A stretch of DNA of 32,000 bases, taken from assembly GCF_001457615.1 (NCBI RefSeq), contig NZ_LN831024.1, forward strand, positions 2,430,001 through 2,462,000, read 5' to 3'. The position numbers and the translations under genes were made by a program. Each line of letters starts with the position of its first letter. Position 1 is the first letter of the stretch. This stretch comes from Pseudomonas aeruginosa (GTDB lineage Bacteria; Pseudomonadota; Gammaproteobacteria; Pseudomonadales; Pseudomonadaceae). Of this stretch, positions 5,191 to 32,000 are shown piece after piece. The notes under the pieces are model-generated. The model was given only the letters and a program-made list of their open reading frames with translations, did no database searches and had not been told where the DNA came from.

Positions 5191-5214
5191 GGGCATTCAG
5201 TGACTGAATGACCC
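5191..5214 (+). terminator. Stem-loop downstream of the DUF748 gene (no U-tract)
   Basis: GGGCATTCAG-TGA-CTGAATG(A)CCC: 7 perfect bp plus a GGG/CCC extension with one bulged A. It lies 35 nt after the stop. Confidence 0.35.
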
Positions 5215-5318
5215 GTCTGCGTTCACAGTGCGCTTGTCCCCGCGTTATAGTCGGGTTTTCAAACAATACTGAACTGCCCGGTTTTCCAGCCAGGGCGTTA
5301 CCGTTCGAGGATTTCCTG

Positions 5319-6164
5319 ATGAAGTTCGAAGGCACCCAGTCCTACGTCGCCACCGACGACCTCAAGCTCGCGGTCAACGCCGCCATCACCCTGCAGCGGC
5401 CGCTGCTGGTGAAGGGCGAACCGGGCACCGGCAAGACCATGCTCGCCGAGCAGCTGGCCGAGTCCTTCGGCGCCAAGCTGATCACCTGGCACATCAAGTC
5501 CACCACCAAGGCCCACCAGGGCCTCTACGAGTACGATGCGGTAAGCCGCCTGCGCGATTCGCAACTGGGCGTGGACAAGGTCCACGACGTGCGCAACTAC
5601 ATCAAGAAGGGCAAGCTCTGGGAGGCCTTCGAGGCCGAGGAGCGGGTGATCCTGCTGATCGACGAGATCGACAAGGCCGACATCGAGTTCCCCAACGACC
5701 TGTTGCAGGAACTCGACAAGATGGAGTTCTACGTCTACGAGACCAACGAAACCATCAAGGCGAAGCAGCGCCCGATCATCATCATCACCTCGAACAACGA
5801 GAAGGAACTGCCCGACGCCTTCCTGCGCCGCTGCTTCTTCCACTACATCGCCTTCCCCGACCGCGAGACGTTGCAGAAAATCGTCGACGTGCACTACCCG
5901 AACATCAAGCAGTCGCTGGTCAGCGAGGCGCTGGACATCTTCTTCGACGTGCGCAAGGTGCCCGGCCTGAAAAAGAAACCTTCGACTTCCGAGCTGGTCG
6001 ACTGGCTGAAGTTGCTGATGGCCGACGAGATCGGCGAAGCGGTGCTGCGCGAACGCGATCCGACCAAGGCGATCCCGCCGCTGGCCGGCGCCCTGGTGAA
6101 GAACGAGCAGGACGTGCAGCTTCTCGAGCGCCTGGCGTTCATGAGCCGCCGCGCCAGCCGCTGA
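5319..6164 (+). CDS. MoxR-family AAA+ ATPase, 281 aa
   Basis: Within ORF 5208..6164. ATG 5319 is preceded by GAGGA. Walker A GEPGTGKT, Walker B ILLIDEIDKA and the sensor region IIIITSNNEKELPDAFLRRCFFHYI are typical of the MoxR/AAA_5 class. Confidence 0.9.
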   Translation: MKFEGTQSYVATDDLKLAVNAAITLQRPLLVKGEPGTGKTMLAEQLAESFGAKLITWHIKSTTKAHQGLYEYDAVSRLRDSQLGVDKVHDVRNYIKKGKLWEAFEAEERVILLIDEIDKADIEFPNDLLQELDKMEFYVYETNETIKAKQRPIIIITSNNEKELPDAFLRRCFFHYIAFPDRETLQKIVDVHYPNIKQSLVSEALDIFFDVRKVPGLKKKPSTSELVDWLKLLMADEIGEAVLRERDPTKAIPPLAGALVKNEQDVQLLERLAFMSRRASR

Positions 6165-6672: not shown

Positions 6673-7854
6673 ATGCTGCTCAACCTGTTCAACGAAATGC
6701 GCGCAGCCAAGGTGCCGGTGTCGGTGCGCGAGCTGCTCGACCTGATCGATGCCCTGAAGCACCGCGTGGTGTTCGCCGACATGGACGAGTTCTACTACCT
6801 GGCGCGCACCATCATGGTCAAGGACGAGCGCCACTTCGACAAGTTCGACCGGGCCTTCGGCGCCTACTTCAAGGGCCTGGAGAAGCTCGACGACCACCTC
6901 AAGGCGCTGATCCCCGAGGAATGGCTGCGCAAGGAATTCGAGCGCCTGCTGACCGACGAGGAAAAGGCGCAGATCCAGTCCCTCGGCGGCCTGGACAAGC
7001 TGATCGAAGAGTTCAAGAAACGCCTCGAGGAACAGAAGGAGCGCCATGCCGGCGGTAACAAGTGGATCGGTACCGGCGGTACCAGTCCGTTCGGCTCCGG
7101 CGGCTTCAACCCGGAGGGCGTCCGCGTCGGCGACGCCGGCAAGCGCCAGGGCAAGGCGGCCAAGGTCTGGGACCAGCGCGAATACAAGAACCTCGACGAC
7201 CAGGTCGAACTGGGTACGCGCAACATCAAGATCGCCCTGCGGCGCCTGCGCAAGTTCGCCCGTGAGGGCGCGGCGGAGGAGCTGGACATCGACGGCACCA
7301 TCGACCACACCGCGAAGGACGCCGGGCTGCTCAACATCCAGATGCGCCCGGAGCGGCGCAACACGGTGAAGCTGTTGCTGCTGCTGGACATCGGCGGCTC
7401 GATGGACGCCCACGTCAAGGTCTGCGAGGAGCTGTTCTCGGCCTGCAAGACCGAGTTCAAGCACCTGGAGTATTTCTACTTCCACAACTTCATCTACGAG
7501 TCGGTGTGGAAGAACAACCTGCGCCGCAGCAGCGAACGCACCGCCACCTTCGACCTGCTGCACAAGTACGGTCCGGACTACAAGGTGGTGTTCGTCGGCG
7601 ACGCGGCGATGGCGCCCTACGAAATCACCCAGGCCGGCGGCAGCGTCGAGCACTGGAACGAGGAAGCCGGTTACGTCTGGATGCAGCGCTTCATGGAGAA
7701 GTACAAGAAGCTCATCTGGATCAACCCCTATCCGAAGGACACCTGGAACTACACGGCGTCCACCGGCCTGGTCCGCGAACTGGTCAAGGAACAGATGTAT
7801 CCGTTGACCCTGAGCGGCCTGGAGGAGGGCATGCGCTTCCTCTCGCGCGGTTGA
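6673..7854 (+). CDS. VWA-domain protein of the CoxE / MoxR-partner type, 393 aa
   Basis: ORF 6673..7854. The C-terminal region LLLLLDIGGSMDAH... carries a MIDAS-like DxGxS motif, followed by VVFVGDAAMAPYE. The general architecture matches CoxE-like VWA proteins that pair with MoxR ATPases. Confidence 0.8.
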   Translation: MLLNLFNEMRAAKVPVSVRELLDLIDALKHRVVFADMDEFYYLARTIMVKDERHFDKFDRAFGAYFKGLEKLDDHLKALIPEEWLRKEFERLLTDEEKAQIQSLGGLDKLIEEFKKRLEEQKERHAGGNKWIGTGGTSPFGSGGFNPEGVRVGDAGKRQGKAAKVWDQREYKNLDDQVELGTRNIKIALRRLRKFAREGAAEELDIDGTIDHTAKDAGLLNIQMRPERRNTVKLLLLLDIGGSMDAHVKVCEELFSACKTEFKHLEYFYFHNFIYESVWKNNLRRSSERTATFDLLHKYGPDYKVVFVGDAAMAPYEITQAGGSVEHWNEEAGYVWMQRFMEKYKKLIWINPYPKDTWNYTASTGLVRELVKEQMYPLTLSGLEEGMRFLSRG

Positions 7855-7967: not shown

Positions 7968-8987
7968 ATGATCGACTCGACCTTCTCCCGCGCCACCTGG
8001 CTCAACTCGCTGCACATGTCGACCCTCACTCTCTCGCTGCTGGAGAAGGAAGGGTTCGCCCGCGAGCAACTGCTCGAAGGCAGTGGCATCACCCCCGCCG
8101 ACCTGCTCGACCTGCGGCGCCTGATCAGCCCCTGGCAGGAGCAGCAGGTGTTCGCCAACGCCTGCCGGCTCAGCGACGAGCCGGCCCTCGGCCTGCGCCT
8201 GGGACTGCGCACGCGGATTTCCGCCTACGGCCTGCTCGGCTACGCGCTGCTCTCCGCGCCGACCCTCGGCGAGGCGCTGCGCATCGGCCTCAGCTATCCG
8301 GTCTTGCTCGGCACCTACTTCCACCTGTCGCTGGAAGTCGCCGACGGCCGCGCCTGGCTGGTGGCCACCGGCTACGGCGAGGACGAGGCGCTGCGGCCAT
8401 TCAACACCGAGCTTTGCCTGGGCTCGCTGAAGGTCACCTGCGCCGACCTGCTCGGCCAGCCGCTGCCCTTGCTGGAAGCGGCCTTCGACTATGCCGGCGA
8501 CGAGGCGATGGCGCGGGCCTACGCCGAGGGTTTCGCCTGCGAGTTGCACTTCGAACGCGAGCGCAGCGCCATCGGCTTCGCCGCCGAATGGCTGGAGCGC
8601 CCGTTGCCGCTGGCCGACCCGGTGACCCACCGGGAGATGCTGGAACAGTGCCGGCGGCAGAACATCGACCTGGCCGCGCGTCGTGCCTGGCTGGACAAGG
8701 TCCGGGCGATCCTCGCCGAGCGCTTGCAGGACCCGCCCGGCCTGGAGGAACTGGCCAGGCGCCTGAACTGTTCGTCGCGCAGCCTGCGCCGGCACCTTCA
8801 GCAGCAGCGCACCAGCTACCAGCAATTGCTCGACGAGTTGCGCTTCGCCCGCGCCAAGGAGTTGTTGCAGAGCGGCGACATGCCGATCTACCGGATCGCC
8901 GAGGAACTCGGCTTCAGCGAGACCGCCAGCCTGCGCCATGCCTTCCAGCGCTGGAGCGGCCAGCCGCCGAGCCATTTCCGCGCCTGA
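7968..8987 (+). CDS. AraC-family transcriptional regulator with an N-terminal AraC-binding-like sensor domain, 339 aa
   Basis: C-terminal double HTH (LEELARRLNCSSRSLRRHLQQQRTSYQQLLDELRFARAKELLQSGDMPIYRIAEELGFSETASLRHAFQRWSGQPPSHFR). Confidence 0.85.
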   Translation: MIDSTFSRATWLNSLHMSTLTLSLLEKEGFAREQLLEGSGITPADLLDLRRLISPWQEQQVFANACRLSDEPALGLRLGLRTRISAYGLLGYALLSAPTLGEALRIGLSYPVLLGTYFHLSLEVADGRAWLVATGYGEDEALRPFNTELCLGSLKVTCADLLGQPLPLLEAAFDYAGDEAMARAYAEGFACELHFERERSAIGFAAEWLERPLPLADPVTHREMLEQCRRQNIDLAARRAWLDKVRAILAERLQDPPGLEELARRLNCSSRSLRRHLQQQRTSYQQLLDELRFARAKELLQSGDMPIYRIAEELGFSETASLRHAFQRWSGQPPSHFRA

Positions 8988-8995
8988 GCGCTCGC

Positions 8996-9220
8996 TCAGG
9001 CGGAGGGGCTGGTGTCGGCGTGGCGCCGTCGCCGTTCGTCCGCCACCTCGCCCAGGGATTTTGCCGCGCCGTCGCCAATCCAGGCCATGAAGGCACGATC
9101 GAAGCGGAAGTCGGCGCCGCACAGCCCGACGAGGAAGCGCCGTACGTCCTGGGCGTTGCGCTAGTCGCGGCACACTGCGGTGTCGCGGGTGATGGTGTCG
9201 CCGTGCCAGCCGAAGACCAT
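8996..9220 (-). pseudogene. Possible decayed remnant of a SAP/DUF6434-like small protein gene, interrupted by an in-frame TAG
   Basis: My translation of the minus strand from ATG 9220 gives MVFGWHGDTITRDTAVCRD, then a stop (TAG at 9163-9161), then RNAQDVRRFLVGLCGADFRFDRAFMAWIGDGAAKSLGEVADERRRRHADTSPSA and a final stop (8998-8996). The GxITxDT...C...R.F...G.xFxF...F..W pattern resembles the C-terminal half of that family as I recall it. The N-terminal half is missing. Confidence 0.3.
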
Positions 9221-9247
9221 CTGTCGTTTCTCTGCGCGCGCTGGAGC

Positions 9248-9271
9248 GGGCAGGCCAACGATGGCCTGCCC
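9248..9271 (-). terminator. Stem-loop terminating the toxin-immunity bicistron
   Basis: GGGCAGGCC-AACGAT-GGCCTGCCC, a perfect 9-bp stem, begins 9 nt downstream of the tsi2 stop. There is no U-tract. Confidence 0.5.
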
Positions 9272-9279
9272 ACGGGCCG

Positions 9280-9513
9280 TCAGGATGCCGGCTCTTCGAT
9301 CAGCCGGTCATAGGGCGGCAGGCCGCTGTATTGGCCCAGGGCTTGCTCGTAGGCGTTCTTCAGGTCGTCGGCGGCGAGGTCGTAGCCGACCAGCAACTGT
9401 TCGAGTTCAGCGGCGTTCTGCGGGTCGTCGTTCTGCAACTGCGCGTCGAGTTCGCGGGTGCGCGCGGCGACGCACTGGATCGCCACCATCAGGGTCTGGG
9501 GTTTCAGGTTCAT
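9280..9513 (-). CDS. tsi2: Small acidic immunity protein for the upstream toxin (Tsi2), 77 aa
   Basis: ORF 9280..9513: MNLKPQTLMVAIQCVAARTRELDAQLQNDDPQNAAELEQLLVGYDLAADDLKNAYEQALGQYSGLPPYDRLIEEPAS. It is rich in D/E/Q/L, has helical/coiled-coil character and has no signal peptide. Its start lies 9 nt after the toxin stop, with an AGGAG overlapping that stop. I recognise the sequence as P. aeruginosa Tsi2. Confidence 0.9.
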   Translation of the reverse strand: MNLKPQTLMVAIQCVAARTRELDAQLQNDDPQNAAELEQLLVGYDLAADDLKNAYEQALGQYSGLPPYDRLIEEPAS

Positions 9514-9522
9514 GGTTCACTC

Positions 9523-9999
9523 CTAGAGCCCGCGGGCTTTTTCCCATTGGCGGCGGATGGCGTTGCGCACGAAGTTGTCCAGTTGGCCCATGAGGACCTC
9601 CCGGTACATCGGCTTGGCCGGCATGATGGTGTAGTGGGTGGCTTGCAGGCGCTTGTTGTAGCTGTCCTGCTTCACCTTAAGGTCCGGCGGGATGTCGGTG
9701 CCGTCGGGTATCACGAAGTCGCCGTCGGCGCGGCGCAGCACGCCGGCGCGGTCGAACACCGAGGTGCCGCCGGTGTCCGGGGCGTAGAGGCCGTCGCGGC
9801 CGGCGACGATGTCCGGCGCGCGGGCGGGGACGCCAGGGGTGTTGGGGCTGTCGAAGGTCGGATGCAGCAGCGGGGCGACTTCCGCAGCCTCGGCGAGTTC
9901 CTTGTCGGGACGCAGGTAGCGACCGACGTCGCCGTCGTAGTTGGCCTTGAATACCGCCCGGTAGAGGGTGAGGCTGGTTTTCTCGTAGTCGTAGGACAT
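9523..9999 (-). CDS. tse2: Type VI secretion exported toxin Tse2, 158 aa
   Basis: 3' part of ORF 9523..11472. The real start is ATG 9999-9997, preceded by AGGGAAG (10013-10007). MSYDYEKTSLTLYRAVFKANYDGDVGRYLRPDKELAEAAEVAPLLHPTFDSPNTPGVPARAPDIVAGRDGLYAPDTGGTSVFDRAGVLRRADGDFVIPDGTDIPPDLKVKQDSYNKRLQATHYTIMPAKPMYREVLMGQLDNFVRNAIRRQWEKARGL. No signal peptide or TM segment. I recognise it as Tse2 (PA2702). Confidence 0.9.
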   Translation of the reverse strand: MSYDYEKTSLTLYRAVFKANYDGDVGRYLRPDKELAEAAEVAPLLHPTFDSPNTPGVPARAPDIVAGRDGLYAPDTGGTSVFDRAGVLRRADGDFVIPDGTDIPPDLKVKQDSYNKRLQATHYTIMPAKPMYREVLMGQLDNFVRNAIRRQWEKARGL

Positions 10000-10145
10000 G
10001 CGTGGACTTCCCTGTGGGTTGCGTTCGCGGCGCCGCGGGTGCGCGGCATCGCTACCGGCCACCGTCCTTGTGGCGCCATCGGCGAGCAGGATAACAGCCG
10101 TGGGCGGATCCGCCAGGGGCAGGCGACGACCGTCGCCCGGGAGGC

Positions 10146-11735
10146 TCAAGGCCTGGCCGCGCCGTGCAGGTAATGGCGGATGCGCACCTCCACGCCGGCG
10201 CTCTGGAAGCGCCGGGCGGCGGCCTCGACCCGCAACTCGCCGCGGGTCACCCGCTGGTGGTGGCGCAGGTGCTCCAGCCAGGATTCGTCGATGAAGAACT
10301 CCAGCCACAGGCGACGGTTGCCGCTGTCCTGGACCAGCCCCCAGGACACCGCGCCGTTGCGCCGACGCATGGCGCGCACCTCGACCATCGCCGCCTGGAA
10401 TGCCGCGGCGTCCTGTGGGTCGATGTCGTACTCGAGGGTGACCATCACCGGGCCGCGTTCCTGGTCCACCTCTTCGTCGACAAGTGGTGCCGGCCAGTGC
10501 AGCGACGGCGCGAGGTCCTCGGCCTCGGTGACCGGCAGCCGGCAGCGCAGCGACGCGAACAGGCCGAGCAGCAGCGCGGCGCTGGCGCAGAGCAGGGCGA
10601 AGGTGATCGACAGGTGGCTGGCGACCAGACCCCACAGGGCGCCGCCGGCGGCCATGCTGCCGAAGAACACCAGGATGTAGACCGCCAGCGCGCGGGCGCG
10701 GACCCAGGCCGGCACGGAGGTCTGCGCGGCGACCTGCAGGCTGGAGAGCACGGCGATCCATGCCGCGCCGCTGAGCAGCATCACCGGCACCAGCAAATAG
10801 AGGTTGCGCAGCAGCGCCAGGGCCACCAGCACCAGTGCGTAGAGCACGCTGGAGAGCAGCACCAGGCGGTCGCTGCCGAGGCGTTCGCGCAGGCGCGGCA
10901 GGAACGCGGCGCCGAGCACCGCGCCGACGCCGACGCTGCCCAGCAGCAGGCCGAAGTCCATGGCGTTGCCATGCAGTTCGCCGCGCACGATCAGGGGCAG
11001 CAGCGACATGCCGGCGCTGGCGCCGAGGAAGAACGCCACCGCACGCACCAGCACCGATTGCAGTGGCCTCGAGCTGCGGCTGTAGCGCCAGCCGGCGCGC
11101 AGGGCGCCGAACAGGCGTTCCGCCGGCAGCACCGAGGGCACGGCCTCGCGTTTCCAGGCCAGCAGCACGGCGATCACCGCGAAGAAGGAGAGGGCGTTGA
11201 GGGCGAAGGTCAGCCAGGGGCCGACCAGGCTCACCAGCACCCCGGCGATGGCCGGTCCGACCGCCCGCGCCAGGTTGACCCCGACACTGGACAGCGCCAC
11301 CGCCGCCGGCAGTTCGTCCTTGCCCACCAGTTCCGGAGTGGTGGCGCTCCAGGCCGGCATCATCAGCGCGGTGCCGATGCCCATGCACAGGGTCAGGCCG
11401 AGCAGCAGCCAGACGCTGGTCAACTGGAGCAGGGTGAGGCCGGCCAGCAGGGTGGCCACCAAGGCCATCCACAATTGCGCGCCGAGCAGGTAGCGGCGCT
11501 TGTCGACGATATCGGCGAGGGCGCCGGCCGGCAGGGCCAGGAAGAACATCGGCAGCGATCCGGCGACCTGCACCAGGGCCACGTTCAGCGGGCTGGCGGA
11601 GAGCGAGGTCATCAGCCAGCCGGCGCCCACCTCATGCATCCAGGTGCCGATGTTCGAGGCGATGCTGGCCAGCCATAGCCAGCGGAAGGTGGCTTGGCGC
11701 AGGGGACTCCAGGGTGAGGCGGCGGGTGCGGTCAT
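10146..11735 (-). CDS. MFS transporter of the MFS_3/EntS-like (DUF894) type with a C-terminal ABM-like cytoplasmic domain, 529 aa
   Basis: ORF 10146..11735. N-terminus ...LRQATFRWLWLASIASNIGTWMHEVGAGWLMTSL is typical of the enterobactin-exporter-like MFS_3 family, with about 12 TM helices. The last ~130 aa are soluble (see findings). Confidence 0.9.
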   Translation of the reverse strand: MTAPAASPWSPLRQATFRWLWLASIASNIGTWMHEVGAGWLMTSLSASPLNVALVQVAGSLPMFFLALPAGALADIVDKRRYLLGAQLWMALVATLLAGLTLLQLTSVWLLLGLTLCMGIGTALMMPAWSATTPELVGKDELPAAVALSSVGVNLARAVGPAIAGVLVSLVGPWLTFALNALSFFAVIAVLLAWKREAVPSVLPAERLFGALRAGWRYSRSSRPLQSVLVRAVAFFLGASAGMSLLPLIVRGELHGNAMDFGLLLGSVGVGAVLGAAFLPRLRERLGSDRLVLLSSVLYALVLVALALLRNLYLLVPVMLLSGAAWIAVLSSLQVAAQTSVPAWVRARALAVYILVFFGSMAAGGALWGLVASHLSITFALLCASAALLLGLFASLRCRLPVTEAEDLAPSLHWPAPLVDEEVDQERGPVMVTLEYDIDPQDAAAFQAAMVEVRAMRRRNGAVSWGLVQDSGNRRLWLEFFIDESWLEHLRHHQRVTRGELRVEAAARRFQSAGVEVRIRHYLHGAARP

Positions 11736-26714: not shown

Positions 26715-27631
26715 CAGGGGTGTTCCGTCTCCACCAGTAGGTAGCCCTGGCCGCGTACCGCCTGGATCTGCAGGTGACGGACGGCGACCGCGGCGAGTTT
26801 GCGCCGCAGGTTGCAGACGTGCACGTCGAGACCGCGGTCGAGGCGCGTGTAGCTGCGGTGCAGCACGCTCCGGTAGAGGAACGGCTTGCTCAGCGCCTCG
26901 CCAGCGTGTTCGCGGAGCGTCGCCAGGAGGCGGTACTCGGATGGCGTCAGCCCCGCCGGAAGGCCCTGGTGGAGCACATCCTGGGCCTGGTCGTCGAACA
27001 CCAGCCGGGTATCCCGCCGCTGCGCCGACGGCAGGCGGTCCAGTCGTACGCGGCGCAGCAGGGCGTCGGTGCGGGCATCCAGCTCGGCCAGGCTGAACGG
27101 CTTCGGCAGGTAGTCGTCGGCGCCGCGGGTGAAGCCGCTGATGCGATCCTGTTCGGCGCCCAGGGCCGACATCAGCATCACCGGCGTGGCCTGCTCGCGG
27201 CGCAGCGACTCCAGCAGGGCCAGGCCGTCGAGGCCGGGTAGCATGATGTCCAGCAACACCAGGTCGAACGCTTCGCGCCCGGCGGCTTCCAGTCCGTGCG
27301 AGCCATCGCCGCAGACGGTTACGCGGAAGCCGCGCCGGCGGAAATGCGCGTCGAGATCCTCGCGTAGGCGTGGGTCGTCTTCGACCAGCAGCAGGCGGGG
27401 AGATGGGATTGAAATATGAGAATGATTCACGTTCGTGAATATCTCATTTTTGCCGGGTATCGGGCAATGGGCCAATGCGCCGCAGCGTGCTCGGAGCGGA
27501 AATACTTTTCGACAAAGCCGTCGTTGCTTCGGCTTTGGTTCTGGCTTAGGGTCGGCGGGTCCGCAGGAGGCGGGCAGGAGTGTCGTGGCTATTGGCCAGC
27601 CTTTCGCGACGGCACTGGGTTGTACGATCAT
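26714..27631 (-). CDS. pfeR: OmpR-family response regulator (start uncertain: 305 aa from ATG 27631, or 238 aa from GTG 27430)
   Basis: ORF 26714..27631. The receiver domain starts at RLLLVEDDPRLREDL...DLVLLDIMLPGLDG, and there is a winged-helix output domain (...GLDVHVCNLRRKL...VRGQGYLL). The first ~77 codons of the long ORF have no response-regulator similarity. Confidence 0.9.
   Translation of the reverse strand: MIVQPSAVAKGWPIATTLLPASCGPADPKPEPKPKQRRLCRKVFPLRARCGALAHCPIPGKNEIFTNVNHSHISIPSPRLLLVEDDPRLREDLDAHFRRRGFRVTVCGDGSHGLEAAGREAFDLVLLDIMLPGLDGLALLESLRREQATPVMLMSALGAEQDRISGFTRGADDYLPKPFSLAELDARTDALLRRVRLDRLPSAQRRDTRLVFDDQAQDVLHQGLPAGLTPSEYRLLATLREHAGEALSKPFLYRSVLHRSYTRLDRGLDVHVCNLRRKLAAVAVRHLQIQAVRGQGYLLVETEHP
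27411..27452. promoter_or_regulatory. AT-rich imperfect palindrome (core ATTCAC-GTTC-GTGAAT), candidate Fur/PfeR operator of pfeRS
   Basis: GAAATATGAGAATGATTCAC GTTC GTGAATATCTCATTTTTG. The arms align with two gaps, and the best Fur-consensus match I found by hand is only 10-11/19. It is the only AT-rich element between pfeR and vgrG. Confidence 0.35.
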
Positions 27632-27695
27632 CTGGCGCGCTGCTGGCGCGTTGTTCGGGCCGCCCGCCGCAGGTGACTATCAAGGAAGATTCCCC

Positions 27696-29765
27696 ATGCT
27701 GTTCTCCCAACACACCCGCCTGGTACACGTGGACTCCCCGCTGGGACCCGAGGTCCTGCAACTGCAACGGCTGGAGGGTCGCGAAGAGCTGGGCCGGCTG
27801 TTCAGCCACGAGCTCGAACTGGTCTCGAGCAATCCCGCCTTGCCTCTGGATGCCCTATTGGGCAAGCCGATGAGCCTCGCGCTGGAACTCCCCGGCGGCA
27901 GCCGGCGGTATTTCCACGGCATCGTCGCGCGCTGTAGCCAGGGCGCCGGCGCCGGCCAGTTCGCCAGCTACCAGGTCACCCTGCGGCCCTGGCTGTGGCT
28001 GCTGACGCGCACCTCCGACTGCCGCATCTTCCAGAACCAGAAGGTCCCGGACATCATCAAGCAGGTGTTCCGCGACCTTGGCTTCTCCGACTTCGAGGAC
28101 GCCCTGAGCCGCTCCTACCGCGAGTGGGAATACTGTGTGCAATACCGCGAGACCAGCTTCGATTTCGTCAGCCGGCTGATGGAGCAGGAAGGCATCTACT
28201 ACTGGTTCCGCCACGAAAAGAAGCGCCACATCCTGGTGCTCTCCGATGCCTACGGCGCGCACCACAGCCCGGCCGGCTACACCAGCGTGCCCTATTACCC
28301 GCCGAGCCTCGGCCATCGCGAGCGCGACCACTTCTTCGACTGGCACATGGCGCGCGAGGTCCAGCCCGGCTCGCTGAGCCTCAACGACTACGACTTCCAG
28401 CGTCCCGGCACCCGCCTGGAAGTGCGCTCCAATGTCGGGCGCGCCCATGCCGCGGCCGACTACCCGCTCTACGACTACCCTGGCGAGTATGTGCAGAGTC
28501 AGGACGGCGAACACTATGCACGGACCCGCATCGAGGCGATCCAGACCCAGTACGAGCGAGTTCGCCTGCGGGGATGCGCCAGGGGTATCGGGGCGGGCCA
28601 TCTGTTCCACCTGAGCAACTACCCGCGCCTGGACCAGAACCGCGAATACCTGGTGGTTGGCGCCGAGTACCGGGTAGTCCAGGAACTCTACGAGACCGGT
28701 AATGGCGGGGGCGGCGCGCAGTTCGAGAGCGAGCTGGACTGTATCGACGCCGGCCAGGCTTTCCGCCCCTTGCCGTCGACCCCGGTGCCGGTGGTGCGCG
28801 GCCCGCAGACCGCGGTGGTGGTCGGGCCCAAGGGCGAGGAGATCTGGACCGACCAGTATGGCCGGGTCAAGGTGCATTTCCACTGGGACCGCCACGACCA
28901 GTCCAACGAGAACAGCTCCTGCTGGATGCGCGTCTCGCAGGCCTGGGCCGGGAAGAACTGGGGCTCGATCCAGATCCCGCGGATCGGCCAGGAAGTGATC
29001 GTCAGCTTCCTCGAAGGCGACCCGGACCGGCCGATCATCACCGGGCGGGTCTACAACGCCGAGCAGACGGTGCCCTACGAGCTGCCGGCGAACGCTACCC
29101 AGAGCGGCACCAAGAGCCGTTCGAGCAAGGGCGGCACGCCGGCCAACTTCAACGAGATCCGCATGGAGGACAAGAAGGGCGCCGAGCAGTTGTTCATCCA
29201 TGCCGAGAGGAACCAGGACATCGAGGTCGAGAACGACGAGACCCACTGGGTCGGCCACGACCGGACCAAGACCATCGACCACGACGAGACGGTGCATGTG
29301 AAGCACGATCGCACCGAGACCGTGGACAACAACGAGACCATCACCGTGCATGCCAACCGCAGCAAGACGGTCGACCGCAACGAGACGGTCAGGATCGGCA
29401 TGAACAAGACGGAAACCATCCTCATGGCCTCGTTGCAGAACGTCGGCATGGGGCGCATGGAAAACGTCGGGCTCGGCTACAGCCTGAACGTCGGCATGAT
29501 GATGAACACCGTGGTCGGGCTGAACCAGAGCACCCAGGTGATGAAGAAGAAGACCTTGTCGGTGGGCGATAGCTACGAAGTGAGCGTGGGCGGCAGCGAC
29601 GATGGCTCGAAGATCACCCTGGACGGCCAGAGCATCACCCTCGGCAGCCAGCGCATCGAGCTGACCGCCGACCGCGAGATCCTCTTGCGCTGCGGCCAGA
29701 GCACGATCCGCCTGACGCCGGGGGAGATCGAGATCCTCTCGCCCAATGTCGATATCAACTGTTGA
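27696..29765 (+). CDS. vgrG1c: Type VI secretion spike protein VgrG, 689 aa
   Basis: Within ORF 27435..29765. ATG 27696 lies behind AAGGAAG. It has a gp27-like N-terminal domain (MLFSQHTRLVHVDSPLG...EELGRLF...YFHGIV), a gp5 OB-fold (GPQTAVVVGPKGEEIWTDQYGRVKVHFHWDR), and beta-helix repeats (ETVHVKHDRTETVDNNETITVHANRSKTVDRNETVRIG). Confidence 0.95.
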   Translation: MLFSQHTRLVHVDSPLGPEVLQLQRLEGREELGRLFSHELELVSSNPALPLDALLGKPMSLALELPGGSRRYFHGIVARCSQGAGAGQFASYQVTLRPWLWLLTRTSDCRIFQNQKVPDIIKQVFRDLGFSDFEDALSRSYREWEYCVQYRETSFDFVSRLMEQEGIYYWFRHEKKRHILVLSDAYGAHHSPAGYTSVPYYPPSLGHRERDHFFDWHMAREVQPGSLSLNDYDFQRPGTRLEVRSNVGRAHAAADYPLYDYPGEYVQSQDGEHYARTRIEAIQTQYERVRLRGCARGIGAGHLFHLSNYPRLDQNREYLVVGAEYRVVQELYETGNGGGGAQFESELDCIDAGQAFRPLPSTPVPVVRGPQTAVVVGPKGEEIWTDQYGRVKVHFHWDRHDQSNENSSCWMRVSQAWAGKNWGSIQIPRIGQEVIVSFLEGDPDRPIITGRVYNAEQTVPYELPANATQSGTKSRSSKGGTPANFNEIRMEDKKGAEQLFIHAERNQDIEVENDETHWVGHDRTKTIDHDETVHVKHDRTETVDNNETITVHANRSKTVDRNETVRIGMNKTETILMASLQNVGMGRMENVGLGYSLNVGMMMNTVVGLNQSTQVMKKKTLSVGDSYEVSVGGSDDGSKITLDGQSITLGSQRIELTADREILLRCGQSTIRLTPGEIEILSPNVDINC

Positions 29766-29814: not shown

Positions 29815-32000
29815 ATGAGCGGCCTACCGGTTTCCCATGTCGGCGAGAAAGTCTCGGGAGGGGTTATCTCCACCGGCTCGCCCACCGTGCACGTCGGCAG
29901 CAGCGCGGTCGGCCTGGCCGACCGGGTGTCCGCCTGCGTGCCGTTGGTGGGCAAGCCGGTCAACCCGATGCTCGGCAGCAAGCTGCTGCCGGAAGAGGTC
30001 GATTTCGCCCTGGCGGCGCCGGACACCTTCACCTTCGCCCGTGGCTACCTGTCGAGCAACCCCCGTATCGGCCGGCTCGGCCGGGGCTGGTGGCTGCCGG
30101 GCGAGAGCATGCACCTGGAACTGAGCGAAGACGCCTGCGTGCTGGTCGACGCCCAGGGCCGCCGGATCGGCTTTCCTGCGCTGGCTCCCGGTGCCCAGCA
30201 TTATTCCGGCAGCGAGGAGCTGTGGCTGCGCCGTGGCGGTTCGAGCGGCGGCGAAGCGCAGGCCTGGCGCGGGCGCTGGGCGGCGGTGCCGGCCGAACTG
30301 CAGACGCAGGAGGGCTCCGTGCTGGTGCTGTCCGGCCACAGCTACCTGCATTTCCAGCGTTGCCCCGACGGTATCTGGCGCCTGCAGGCCAGCTTCGGCC
30401 GCGCCGGCTACCGCACCGAGTTCCGCTGGAGCGGACGTGGCCTGCTCACCGGCGTGCGCGACAGCGCCGGGCGCAGCTATGCGCTGGTCTACCAGCAAGC
30501 CTGCGAGCCGAGCGAGGGCGACGACGGCCTGCGTCTGTTCGGCGTGATCCTGGCCAGCCACGACGGACCGCCTCCGGACTACATCGATCCGCAGAGCCCG
30601 GGGCTCGACTGGCTGGTGCGCTACCAGTTCAGCGACAGCGGCGATCTGATCGCCGTGCGCGACCGTCTTGGCCAGGTGGTCCGGGTATTCGCCTGGCGCG
30701 AGCACATGCTGGTCGCCCACGGCGAACCGGGCGGGCTGGAGGTTCGCTACGAGTGGGATGTCCATGCTCCGCACGGGCGGGTCGTGAAGCAGATCGAGGC
30801 GGGCGGCCTGACCCGTACCTTCCGCTACCTGCGCGATGCCACCGAGGTCAGCGACAGCCTCGGCCGCGTCGAACGCTACGAGTTCGCCGGCGAGGGCGGG
30901 CAGCGGCGCTGGACCGCGCTGGTCAGGGCCGACGGCAGCCGTAGCGAGTTCGACTACGACCTGTTCGGCCGCCTGGTCGCCATGCGCGATCCGCTGGGAC
31001 GGGAGACGCGGCGCCGGCGCGATGGCCAGGGGCGGATGCTCGAGGAGGAGTCGCCGGGCAAGGCGCGCTATCGCAAGCGCGTCGACGAAGAGACCGGGCT
31101 GCTGGTCGAGCTGGAGGACGCGATGCAGCGCCGCTGGACCTTCGAGCGCGACGAACGGGGCAATGCGACGACGGTGCGCGGCCCGGCCGGCAGCACCCGC
31201 TACGCCTACGAAGACCCGCGCCTGCCCGACCGGCCGACGCGAATCGTCGACCCGCGCGGCGGCGAGCGGCGCCTGGAGTGGAACCGCTTCGGCCTGTTGG
31301 CCGCGTTGACCGATTGTTCCGGCCAGGTCTGGCGTTACGACTACGACAACGAAGGACGTTTGGTCGCCAGCAGCGACCCGCTGGGACAACTGACCCGGCG
31401 CCGCTACGACCCGCTGGGGCAACTGATCGGCCTGGAATTGGCCGACGGCAGCGCCCTGAGCTATGAATACGACGCCCTTGGGCGGCAGACCCGTATCGCC
31501 GATGCCGAGGGGCACGCCACGCTGTTTTCCTGGGGGCACGGCGATCTGCTGGTGCGGGTTTCCGACGCCGGCGGCGGCGAATTGTCCTACCTGCACGACG
31601 AAGCCGGCAGGCTGGTCGCCCTGACCAACGAGAACGGCGTCCAGGCGCAGTTCCGCTACGACCTGCTGGACCGTCTGGTGGAAGAGACCGGCTTCGACGG
31701 TCGTCGCCAACGCTATCGCTACAACGCCGCTGACGAACTGATCGCCCGCGAGGATGCCGACGGTCGCGAGACCACCTATGCCTACGACCGCGACGGCCGC
31801 CTGGCGAGCATCCGGGTTCCCGCCACCGAGCACGCACCGGCCCTGGTCGAGCGTTACCGCTGGTTGGCCGACGGCCGCCTGGCCAGCGCCGGCGGGGCGG
31901 ATTGCGAGGTGCGCTATACGTACGACGAGGTCGGTAACCTGCGCCTGGAAAGCCAGGTACATGCCGACGGTTGGGTCTACAGCGTCGAGCACAGCCACGA
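29815..32000 (+). CDS. tse5: PAAR-like/Rhs (YD-repeat) polymorphic toxin, N-terminal ~728 codons (continues past the window end)
   Basis: ATG 29815 lies behind GGAAGGATGG, and the frame is open to 32000 (not in the ORF track because it runs off the edge). My translation begins MSGLPVSHVGEKVSGGVISTGSPTVHVGSSAVGLADRVSAC (PAAR-like). It is followed by many YD repeats (YEYDALGRQTRIADAEGHATLFSW, YRYNAADELIAREDADGRETTYAYDRDGRL...). The symbol is from memory of the PAO1 locus (also called rhsP1). Confidence 0.9.
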   Translation, partial: MSGLPVSHVGEKVSGGVISTGSPTVHVGSSAVGLADRVSACVPLVGKPVNPMLGSKLLPEEVDFALAAPDTFTFARGYLSSNPRIGRLGRGWWLPGESMHLELSEDACVLVDAQGRRIGFPALAPGAQHYSGSEELWLRRGGSSGGEAQAWRGRWAAVPAELQTQEGSVLVLSGHSYLHFQRCPDGIWRLQASFGRAGYRTEFRWSGRGLLTGVRDSAGRSYALVYQQACEPSEGDDGLRLFGVILASHDGPPPDYIDPQSPGLDWLVRYQFSDSGDLIAVRDRLGQVVRVFAWREHMLVAHGEPGGLEVRYEWDVHAPHGRVVKQIEAGGLTRTFRYLRDATEVSDSLGRVERYEFAGEGGQRRWTALVRADGSRSEFDYDLFGRLVAMRDPLGRETRRRRDGQGRMLEEESPGKARYRKRVDEETGLLVELEDAMQRRWTFERDERGNATTVRGPAGSTRYAYEDPRLPDRPTRIVDPRGGERRLEWNRFGLLAALTDCSGQVWRYDYDNEGRLVASSDPLGQLTRRRYDPLGQLIGLELADGSALSYEYDALGRQTRIADAEGHATLFSWGHGDLLVRVSDAGGGELSYLHDEAGRLVALTNENGVQAQFRYDLLDRLVEETGFDGRRQRYRYNAADELIAREDADGRETTYAYDRDGRLASIRVPATEHAPALVERYRWLADGRLASAGGADCEVRYTYDEVGNLRLESQVHADGWVYSVEHSH

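Follow-up and report, generated by a model that had tools for sequence, protein, structure and literature searches.

The tse2–tsi2 effector–immunity operon in a 32,000-nucleotide window of Pseudomonas aeruginosa, compared with the closest described systems

Tse2–Tsi2 of Pseudomonas aeruginosa was the first antibacterial effector–immunity pair described for a type VI secretion system (T6SS). The present work deals with a stretch of 32,000 nucleotides from this species (NCBI RefSeq assembly GCF_001457615.1, contig NZ_LN831024.1, positions 2,430,001 to 2,462,000 of the forward strand), referred to as the window, in which two small genes on the minus strand, at positions 9280–9999, had been recognised in an initial annotation as tse2 and tsi2. 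According to published work, other P. aeruginosa cells are the targets to which the H1-T6SS delivers Tse2; recipients devoid of Tsi2 lose the competition, an effect that depends on both contact and the T6SS (PMC3325213). The toxin acts in the cytoplasm, and Tsi2 is essential as long as tse2 is present because the Tse2 made in the cytoplasm of the producer itself must also be neutralised (PMC3325213). Passages of the same study describe Tse2 as a cause of quiescence, not of death, and Tsi2 as a direct binder of the toxin, through an acidic patch, that is dispensable for export (PMC3325213). The delivery of Tse2 depends on Hcp1, and the protein is toxic to bacteria, yeast, and mammalian cells (PMC12133291). 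The literature on this protein also indicates that the lumen of the Hcp1 hexamer ring stabilises it, and Tse2 has been seen within the Hcp1 ring by cryo-electron microscopy at 2.73 Å (preprint 10.64898/2026.06.15.732508).

Two other kinds of described systems are close enough to be compared. The Tse6–Tsi6 pair resembles Tse2–Tsi2 in that both effectors are bacteriostatic, act in the cytoplasm, belong to the H1-T6SS, and are encoded next to a cytoplasmic immunity gene, NAD+ (nicotinamide adenine dinucleotide) being implicated in both cases. Tse6 is an NAD(P)+ glycohydrolase, a PAAR-domain effector borne on VgrG1a together with a chaperone and EF-Tu. The route of delivery is different, Tse2 being a small cargo of the Hcp1 lumen (PMC12133291) whereas Tse6 is carried by VgrG1a, and the two toxins have no sequence relationship, as Pfam gives only PF18648 in Tse2. 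Type II toxin–antitoxin modules share with Tse2–Tsi2 the two-gene operon, a toxin of the cytoplasm, a small, acidic, and essential antidote that binds the toxin directly, and growth arrest instead of lysis.

With a probability of about 0.96, the pair at 9280–9999 is the tse2–tsi2 effector–immunity operon of P. aeruginosa (PA2702/PA2703 in strain PAO1), whose toxin is exported by the H1-T6SS. The comparison with the crystallised Tse2–Tsi2 complex (PDB 5AKO), which the initial annotation had proposed, gave 157 identical residues out of 158 over the full length for the first product against the Tse2 of chain C (E-value 1.7e-105), and 77 out of 77 for the second against the Tsi2 of chain A; the latter protein is also 100% identical to the Tsi2 of PDB entries 3RQ9, 3VPV, 4C18, and 3STQ. 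The profile databases lead to the same names. The 158-residue product matches PF18648 (ADPRTs_Tse2, "Tse2 ADP-ribosyltransferase toxin") with 57.5 bits (cut-off 26.6), while the 77-residue product matches PF21643 (T6SS_Tsi2-like) with 154 bits and an E-value of 1.2e-45 (cut-off 27), and the NCBIfam equivalog NF052667 (Tsi2) with 98.4 bits (threshold 70). In exact-sequence look-ups of public sources, the first product is named Tse2 of P. aeruginosa and the second "Immune protein Tsi2" (UniRef RepID TSI2_PSEAE). The assembly collection lists the exact Tse2 sequence in 24,144 of its blocks, and the AlphaFold model of this protein (predicted local distance difference test score 88.6) superposes on 5AKO chain C with a template modelling score of 0.92–0.95. 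Structures, Pfam, NCBIfam, and public names thus all agree with the initial recognition. The locus is the same system as that of PAO1, with the same 9-nt layout and the same flanking genes; it is already known, and the initial interpretation, including the remark that the pair is described and not novel, is correct.

The physical properties of both proteins are in line with this identity. Tse2 contains no hydrophobic segment (the maximum of a 19-residue Kyte–Doolittle window is 0.26) and its N-terminus is polar, which bears out the earlier observation that it has neither a signal peptide nor a transmembrane segment. Tsi2 had been called strongly acidic; its computed isoelectric point is 4.05, with 13 aspartate and glutamate residues against five lysine and arginine residues, and its maximum hydropathy window is 0.64, in agreement with a small cytoplasmic protein devoid of a signal peptide. 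Under several of its NCBI and UniRef names, the protein is called "type IV secretion system immunity protein Tsi2", which looks like an IV/VI slip spread by a naming rule, since it is a type VI one. The only difference between the window and the crystallised Tse2 construct is residue 30, arginine here and histidine in 5AKO. Arginine is the common natural allele, and histidine is a natural minority allele (cluster P0017). Codon 30 lies at positions 9910–9912 of the minus strand. Other common alleles of Tse2 vary at K33, which is replaced by glutamine or arginine. The segment K33–A42, which includes this residue, has been reported to rearrange upon Hcp1 binding (preprint 10.64898/2026.06.15.732508).

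The arrangement of the two genes, summarised in Table 1, is compact. Both are encoded by the minus strand, a point on which the initial annotation was silent. They are separated by exactly nine nucleotides (GAGTGAACC, 9514–9522), and the Shine–Dalgarno sequence of tsi2, AGGAG (9520–9524), overlaps the TAG stop codon of tse2, as had been noticed before and is confirmed from the sequence. This overlap suggests that translation of the antidote would be coupled to that of the toxin. The upstream region of 146 bp stated in the initial annotation was likewise recovered, measured from the stop codon of the preceding major facilitator superfamily (MFS) gene at position 10146.

Table 1. Positions and strands of the features of the window that are considered in the text.
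Feature	Position	Strand	Remarks
tse2 coding sequence (PA2702-type)	9999->9523	-	158 codons + TAG; TAG at 9523-9525, ATG at 9999
tsi2 coding sequence (PA2703-type)	9513->9280	-	77 codons + TGA; TGA at 9280-9282, ATG at 9513
tse2–tsi2 junction	9514-9524	-	Spacer and tsi2 Shine–Dalgarno sequence; from sequence
tse2 ribosome-binding region	10006-10015	-	ACAGGGAAGU; 6 nt 5' of ATG
Upstream region of tse2	10000-10145	-	146 bp, 74% G+C
Hairpin past tsi2	9248-9271	-	10-bp perfect G+C-rich stem, 4-nt loop, GGGCAGGCCA/TGGCCTGCCC; 8 nt past tsi2 stop
Hairpin past MFS gene	10120-10139	-	8-bp, G+C-rich, just past MFS stop; in minimum-energy and centroid folds; no U-tract
DUF6434 (PF20026) frame	8996-9220	-	75 codons; between tsi2 hairpin and convergent AraC gene
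AraC-type regulator	7968-8987	+	Convergent with tse2–tsi2
MFS_3, OprD, and Amidohydro_3 genes	Upstream of tse2	-	Same strand as tse2–tsi2
AAA-type ATPase gene	5208-6164	+	Beyond AraC regulator
VWA_CoxE-domain gene	6673-7854	+	Beyond AraC regulator
VgrG spike gene	27435-29765	+	Phage_GPD, Gp5, DUF2345; 1103 bits to P. aeruginosa VgrG1 structures
Rhs-repeat gene	29815-32000	+	Tse5 of PDB 8CP6, 1572 bits; runs past window end

The ribosome-binding region of tse2 has a further feature. Its sequence, ACAGGGAAGU, contains GGA, resembles the CsrA/RsmA consensus (ACARGGAUGU), and is unchanged in P. paraeruginosa. The pattern ACARGGAWGT, chosen post hoc, occurs once in the 32-kb window, precisely at this site, against 0.13 expected occurrences. 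The motif may be regarded as a candidate site for Gac/Rsm control, that is, as a lead and not as a result. For Tse2, repression by RetS is on record in the literature (PMC4899435).

As for the activity of the toxin, the initial annotation had found no recognisable enzymatic motif in the first product, a view now outdated by the PF18648 label and by a predicted catalytic pocket formed by R14, T79, S80, and H122, whose T79A/S80A variant is non-toxic (preprint 10.64898/2026.06.15.732508). The four residues are present in the Tse2 of the window and invariant across an alignment of 37 full-length homologues with identities as low as 59%, and the same is true of H46, R60, D63, and D94. Regarding the reaction itself, a passage of another article, citing Robb 2016, speaks of NAD-dependent toxicity that may involve ADP-ribosyltransferase activity (PMC4899435). 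According to a 2025 review, in turn, the mechanism of Tse2 remains unknown (PMC12133291).

Taken together with the published biology, these features are consistent with the following course of events. tse2 and tsi2 would be transcribed as a single unit from a promoter located in the 146-bp gap, the translation of tsi2 would follow that of tse2 owing to the overlap of ribosome-binding site and stop codon, and, through the RsmA-like motif at the ribosome-binding site of tse2, production would come under the same RetS/Gac/Rsm switch as the H1-T6SS itself. In the producing cell, Tsi2 caps Tse2, as shown in the literature, and the toxin is loaded into the lumen of Hcp1 and shot by the H1-T6SS into Gram-negative neighbours, again as published. 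Once inside a recipient that lacks Tsi2, the toxin would carry out, through its R14/T79/S80/H122 pocket, whose requirement is documented, a reaction that arrests growth. For this reaction, an NAD+-dependent, ADP-ribosyltransferase-like transfer of ADP-ribose to a target conserved in bacteria and eukaryotes alike appears the most likely candidate, at about even odds. The toxic chemistry is the least certain step of the explanation. The whole would constitute a self-contained two-gene unit, functionally unrelated to its neighbours.

Nothing speaks against the identity of the pair, but the following observations weigh against parts of the mechanism. A Foldseek search of the PDB with the Tse2 model returned only 5AKO chain C and no ADP-ribosyltransferase, the next best match having an E-value of 1.4. 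A profile of the Tse2 family searched against PDB sequences also found only 5AKO. In the scans of positions 8900–10400, neither a promoter nor a canonical terminator was detected (zero sigma-70 sites, including the 146-bp gap, and zero intrinsic-terminator sites), and for this reason the independence of transcription from the MFS operon is not proven by the sequence. Finally, the RsmA-like pattern was defined only once the site had been seen.

The first two of these points bear on the alternative that survives best, namely that Tse2 is not an ADP-ribosyltransferase at all and that its pocket performs another reaction, for instance hydrolysis of NAD+ or of nucleotides or some other group transfer, or else binds and blocks a conserved target without catalysis. 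This possibility is tentatively retained, at somewhat less than even odds. It draws on the confident structural model, for which the Foldseek search of the PDB gave no ADP-ribosyltransferase fold, on the profile search of the PDB, which finds only Tse2 itself, and on an apparent departure from the canonical R-S-E or H-Y-E triad, in that H122 would stand where ADP-ribosyltransferases are expected to have their catalytic glutamate. The review that terms the mechanism unknown points in the same direction (PMC12133291), while the PF18648 label and the reported NAD dependence speak for the transferase. A bolder form of the alternative, in which the label is simply wrong and the invariant residues R14, H46, R60, D63, T79, S80, D94, and H122 serve a different, undescribed chemistry on a target conserved across life, is considered unlikely.

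A second set of alternatives concerns the relation of the pair to its surroundings, and in this regard the homologues in other lineages are informative. The matches of the contig scan comprise P. paraeruginosa and a metagenome-assembled genome (MAG) of the Burkholderiaceae, P. aeruginosa itself not being among them; the assignment of the pair to this species relies on the PDB identities, the public names, and the exact matches and shared neighbourhood in the assembly collection. Outside Pseudomonas, the Tse2 family is found in Massilia sp. W12, Rhizobacter sp. P5_C2, the Burkholderiaceae MAG, and many metagenome contigs, with identities of 55–73%. All the loci examined have a gene for a Tsi2-like protein of 72–78 residues just 3' of the toxin gene, with a gap of 0–11 nt, and the same order of toxin and Tsi2 gene is kept in P. 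paraeruginosa. In the Burkholderiaceae MAG (contig JBKJLF010000449.1, 2158–2882), which was read as raw open reading frames without listed gene calls, the two proteins are 70% and 61% identical to those of the window and the spacer measures 8 nt. This pair appears to sit, as judged by eye from the letters and the translated reading frames, in an AT-rich stretch between far more G+C-rich flanks, which would suggest that the bicistron reached this lineage by horizontal transfer, and recently.

Among the called genes within 6 kb of the pairs of Massilia, Rhizobacter, and the metagenome contig, no T6SS genes were found, and the neighbours are unrelated housekeeping genes. Because a Tsi2-like gene adjoins the toxin gene in every locus and the neighbours are unrelated, the orphan bicistron is, as far as these sequences go, a property of the Tse2/Tsi2 family. 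The Burkholderiales and metagenome pairs are like that of P. aeruginosa in keeping all four pocket residues and the order of toxin and Tsi2-like gene, and unlike it in their host lineages and neighbourhoods.

These neighbourhoods bear on the proposal that tse2–tsi2 is merely the distal end of the amidohydrolase–OprD–MFS operon and serves transport or catabolism. In its favour, the pair lies on the same strand as the MFS gene and 146 bp from it, and the scans found neither a sigma-70 consensus between them nor a canonical terminator past the MFS gene. However, homologous pairs are located among entirely different genes in Massilia, Rhizobacter, the Burkholderiaceae MAG, and the metagenome contig, which makes it less likely that the pair works together with the MFS, OprD, and amidohydrolase genes; besides, the known function of Tse2–Tsi2 is unrelated to transport, there is a G+C-rich hairpin just past the MFS stop codon, and consensus scans are weak in DNA of 67% G+C. 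The operon link has accordingly been rejected as very improbable. The absence of a functional link to the flanking genes, as asserted in the initial annotation, is in keeping with the unrelated neighbourhoods of Massilia, Rhizobacter, and the metagenome contig, but it has the standing of an inference only.

The weakest alternative, an ordinary chromosomal type II toxin–antitoxin module, of the addiction or persistence kind, acting only inside the producing cell and not secreted, fits the layout of a small toxin gene followed after 9 nt by a small acidic antidote gene, the essentiality of Tsi2, and the orphan sites without T6SS genes in four lineages, but it was ruled out as scarcely credible, since the very same protein leaves the cell through the H1-T6SS, lodges in the Hcp1 lumen, and confers a contact-dependent advantage over recipients lacking Tsi2 according to published data, since passages of PMC3325213 describe Tsi2 as stable, unlike known antitoxins, and functionally distinct from toxin–antitoxin systems, and since the toxin gene comes first and Tsi2, whose fold is distinct, has no DNA-binding domain in the Pfam scan.

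The boundaries of the tse2–tsi2 transcription unit can be described further. The hairpin downstream of tsi2 is real and dominates the local fold of 61 nt (−33 kcal/mol against −22.8 ± 3.2 for shuffled sequences, z = −3.2); no run of T residues follows it. Its earlier designation as a hairpin terminator therefore holds for the hairpin but not for a canonical intrinsic terminator, which would have a U-tract; the transcript probably ends there nevertheless. It is also retained in P. paraeruginosa, where it abuts the convergent AraC gene. At the other end, the 146-bp region presumably carries the tse2 promoter, and its 3' 95 nt are near-invariant between P. aeruginosa and P. paraeruginosa. The overall fold of this leader is no better than that of shuffled sequences (z = 0.43). 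The hairpin just past the MFS stop codon, which the terminator scan did not call, may be a weak sign that the upstream operon ends there. No Rfam family reached its gathering threshold anywhere in the window.

Between the tsi2 hairpin and the AraC gene, the minus strand contains the remnant of another gene. The match to DUF6434 spans the whole Pfam model, with an E-value of 8.3e-24 when the stop codon is read as tyrosine, and the frame is interrupted by a single in-frame TAG at 9161–9163, at a position which we take to be a tyrosine in the family. The same TAG occurs in each of the four further P. aeruginosa loci that were examined, and the frame is without a gene call. The frame is thus probably a fixed pseudogene; that it is still expressed and tied to tse2–tsi2 would be the lesser possibility. 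In P. paraeruginosa ATCC 9027 (locus L005, 3759–3762), the whole block of about 246 bp that includes the remnant (8992–9237 of the window) is cleanly missing, and the tsi2 hairpin abuts the stop codon of the AraC gene. The block is an insertion/deletion that separates the sister species P. aeruginosa and P. paraeruginosa.

The flanking genes are those given in the initial annotation. The wider neighbourhood is the same in four other assemblies, with the amidohydrolase, OprD-family porin, and MFS_3 genes upstream on the same strand and the AraC-type gene convergent downstream, and these loci are 99.1–99.6% identical to the window across 3.9 kb. Other assemblies call a GFA-domain gene between the AAA-type ATPase and VWA_CoxE genes. 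At the far end of the window, the VgrG and Rhs-repeat genes correspond by their position to vgrG1c–tse5 (PA2685/PA2684), the second locus for H1-T6SS effectors in the window, about 17.4 kb from tse2. The pair had been called stand-alone; this description stands for its immediate neighbours, but not for the window as a whole, in which vgrG–tse5 lies some 17 kb away.

Nothing is new at the tse2–tsi2 locus itself, both of whose proteins have solved structures. The check validates the recognition of the pair by sequence and shows that the window is P. aeruginosa chromosome with two H1-T6SS effector loci. The residues invariant across the family and the orphan bicistron in Burkholderiales add modestly to this picture and could be of use for mutagenesis or comparative work.
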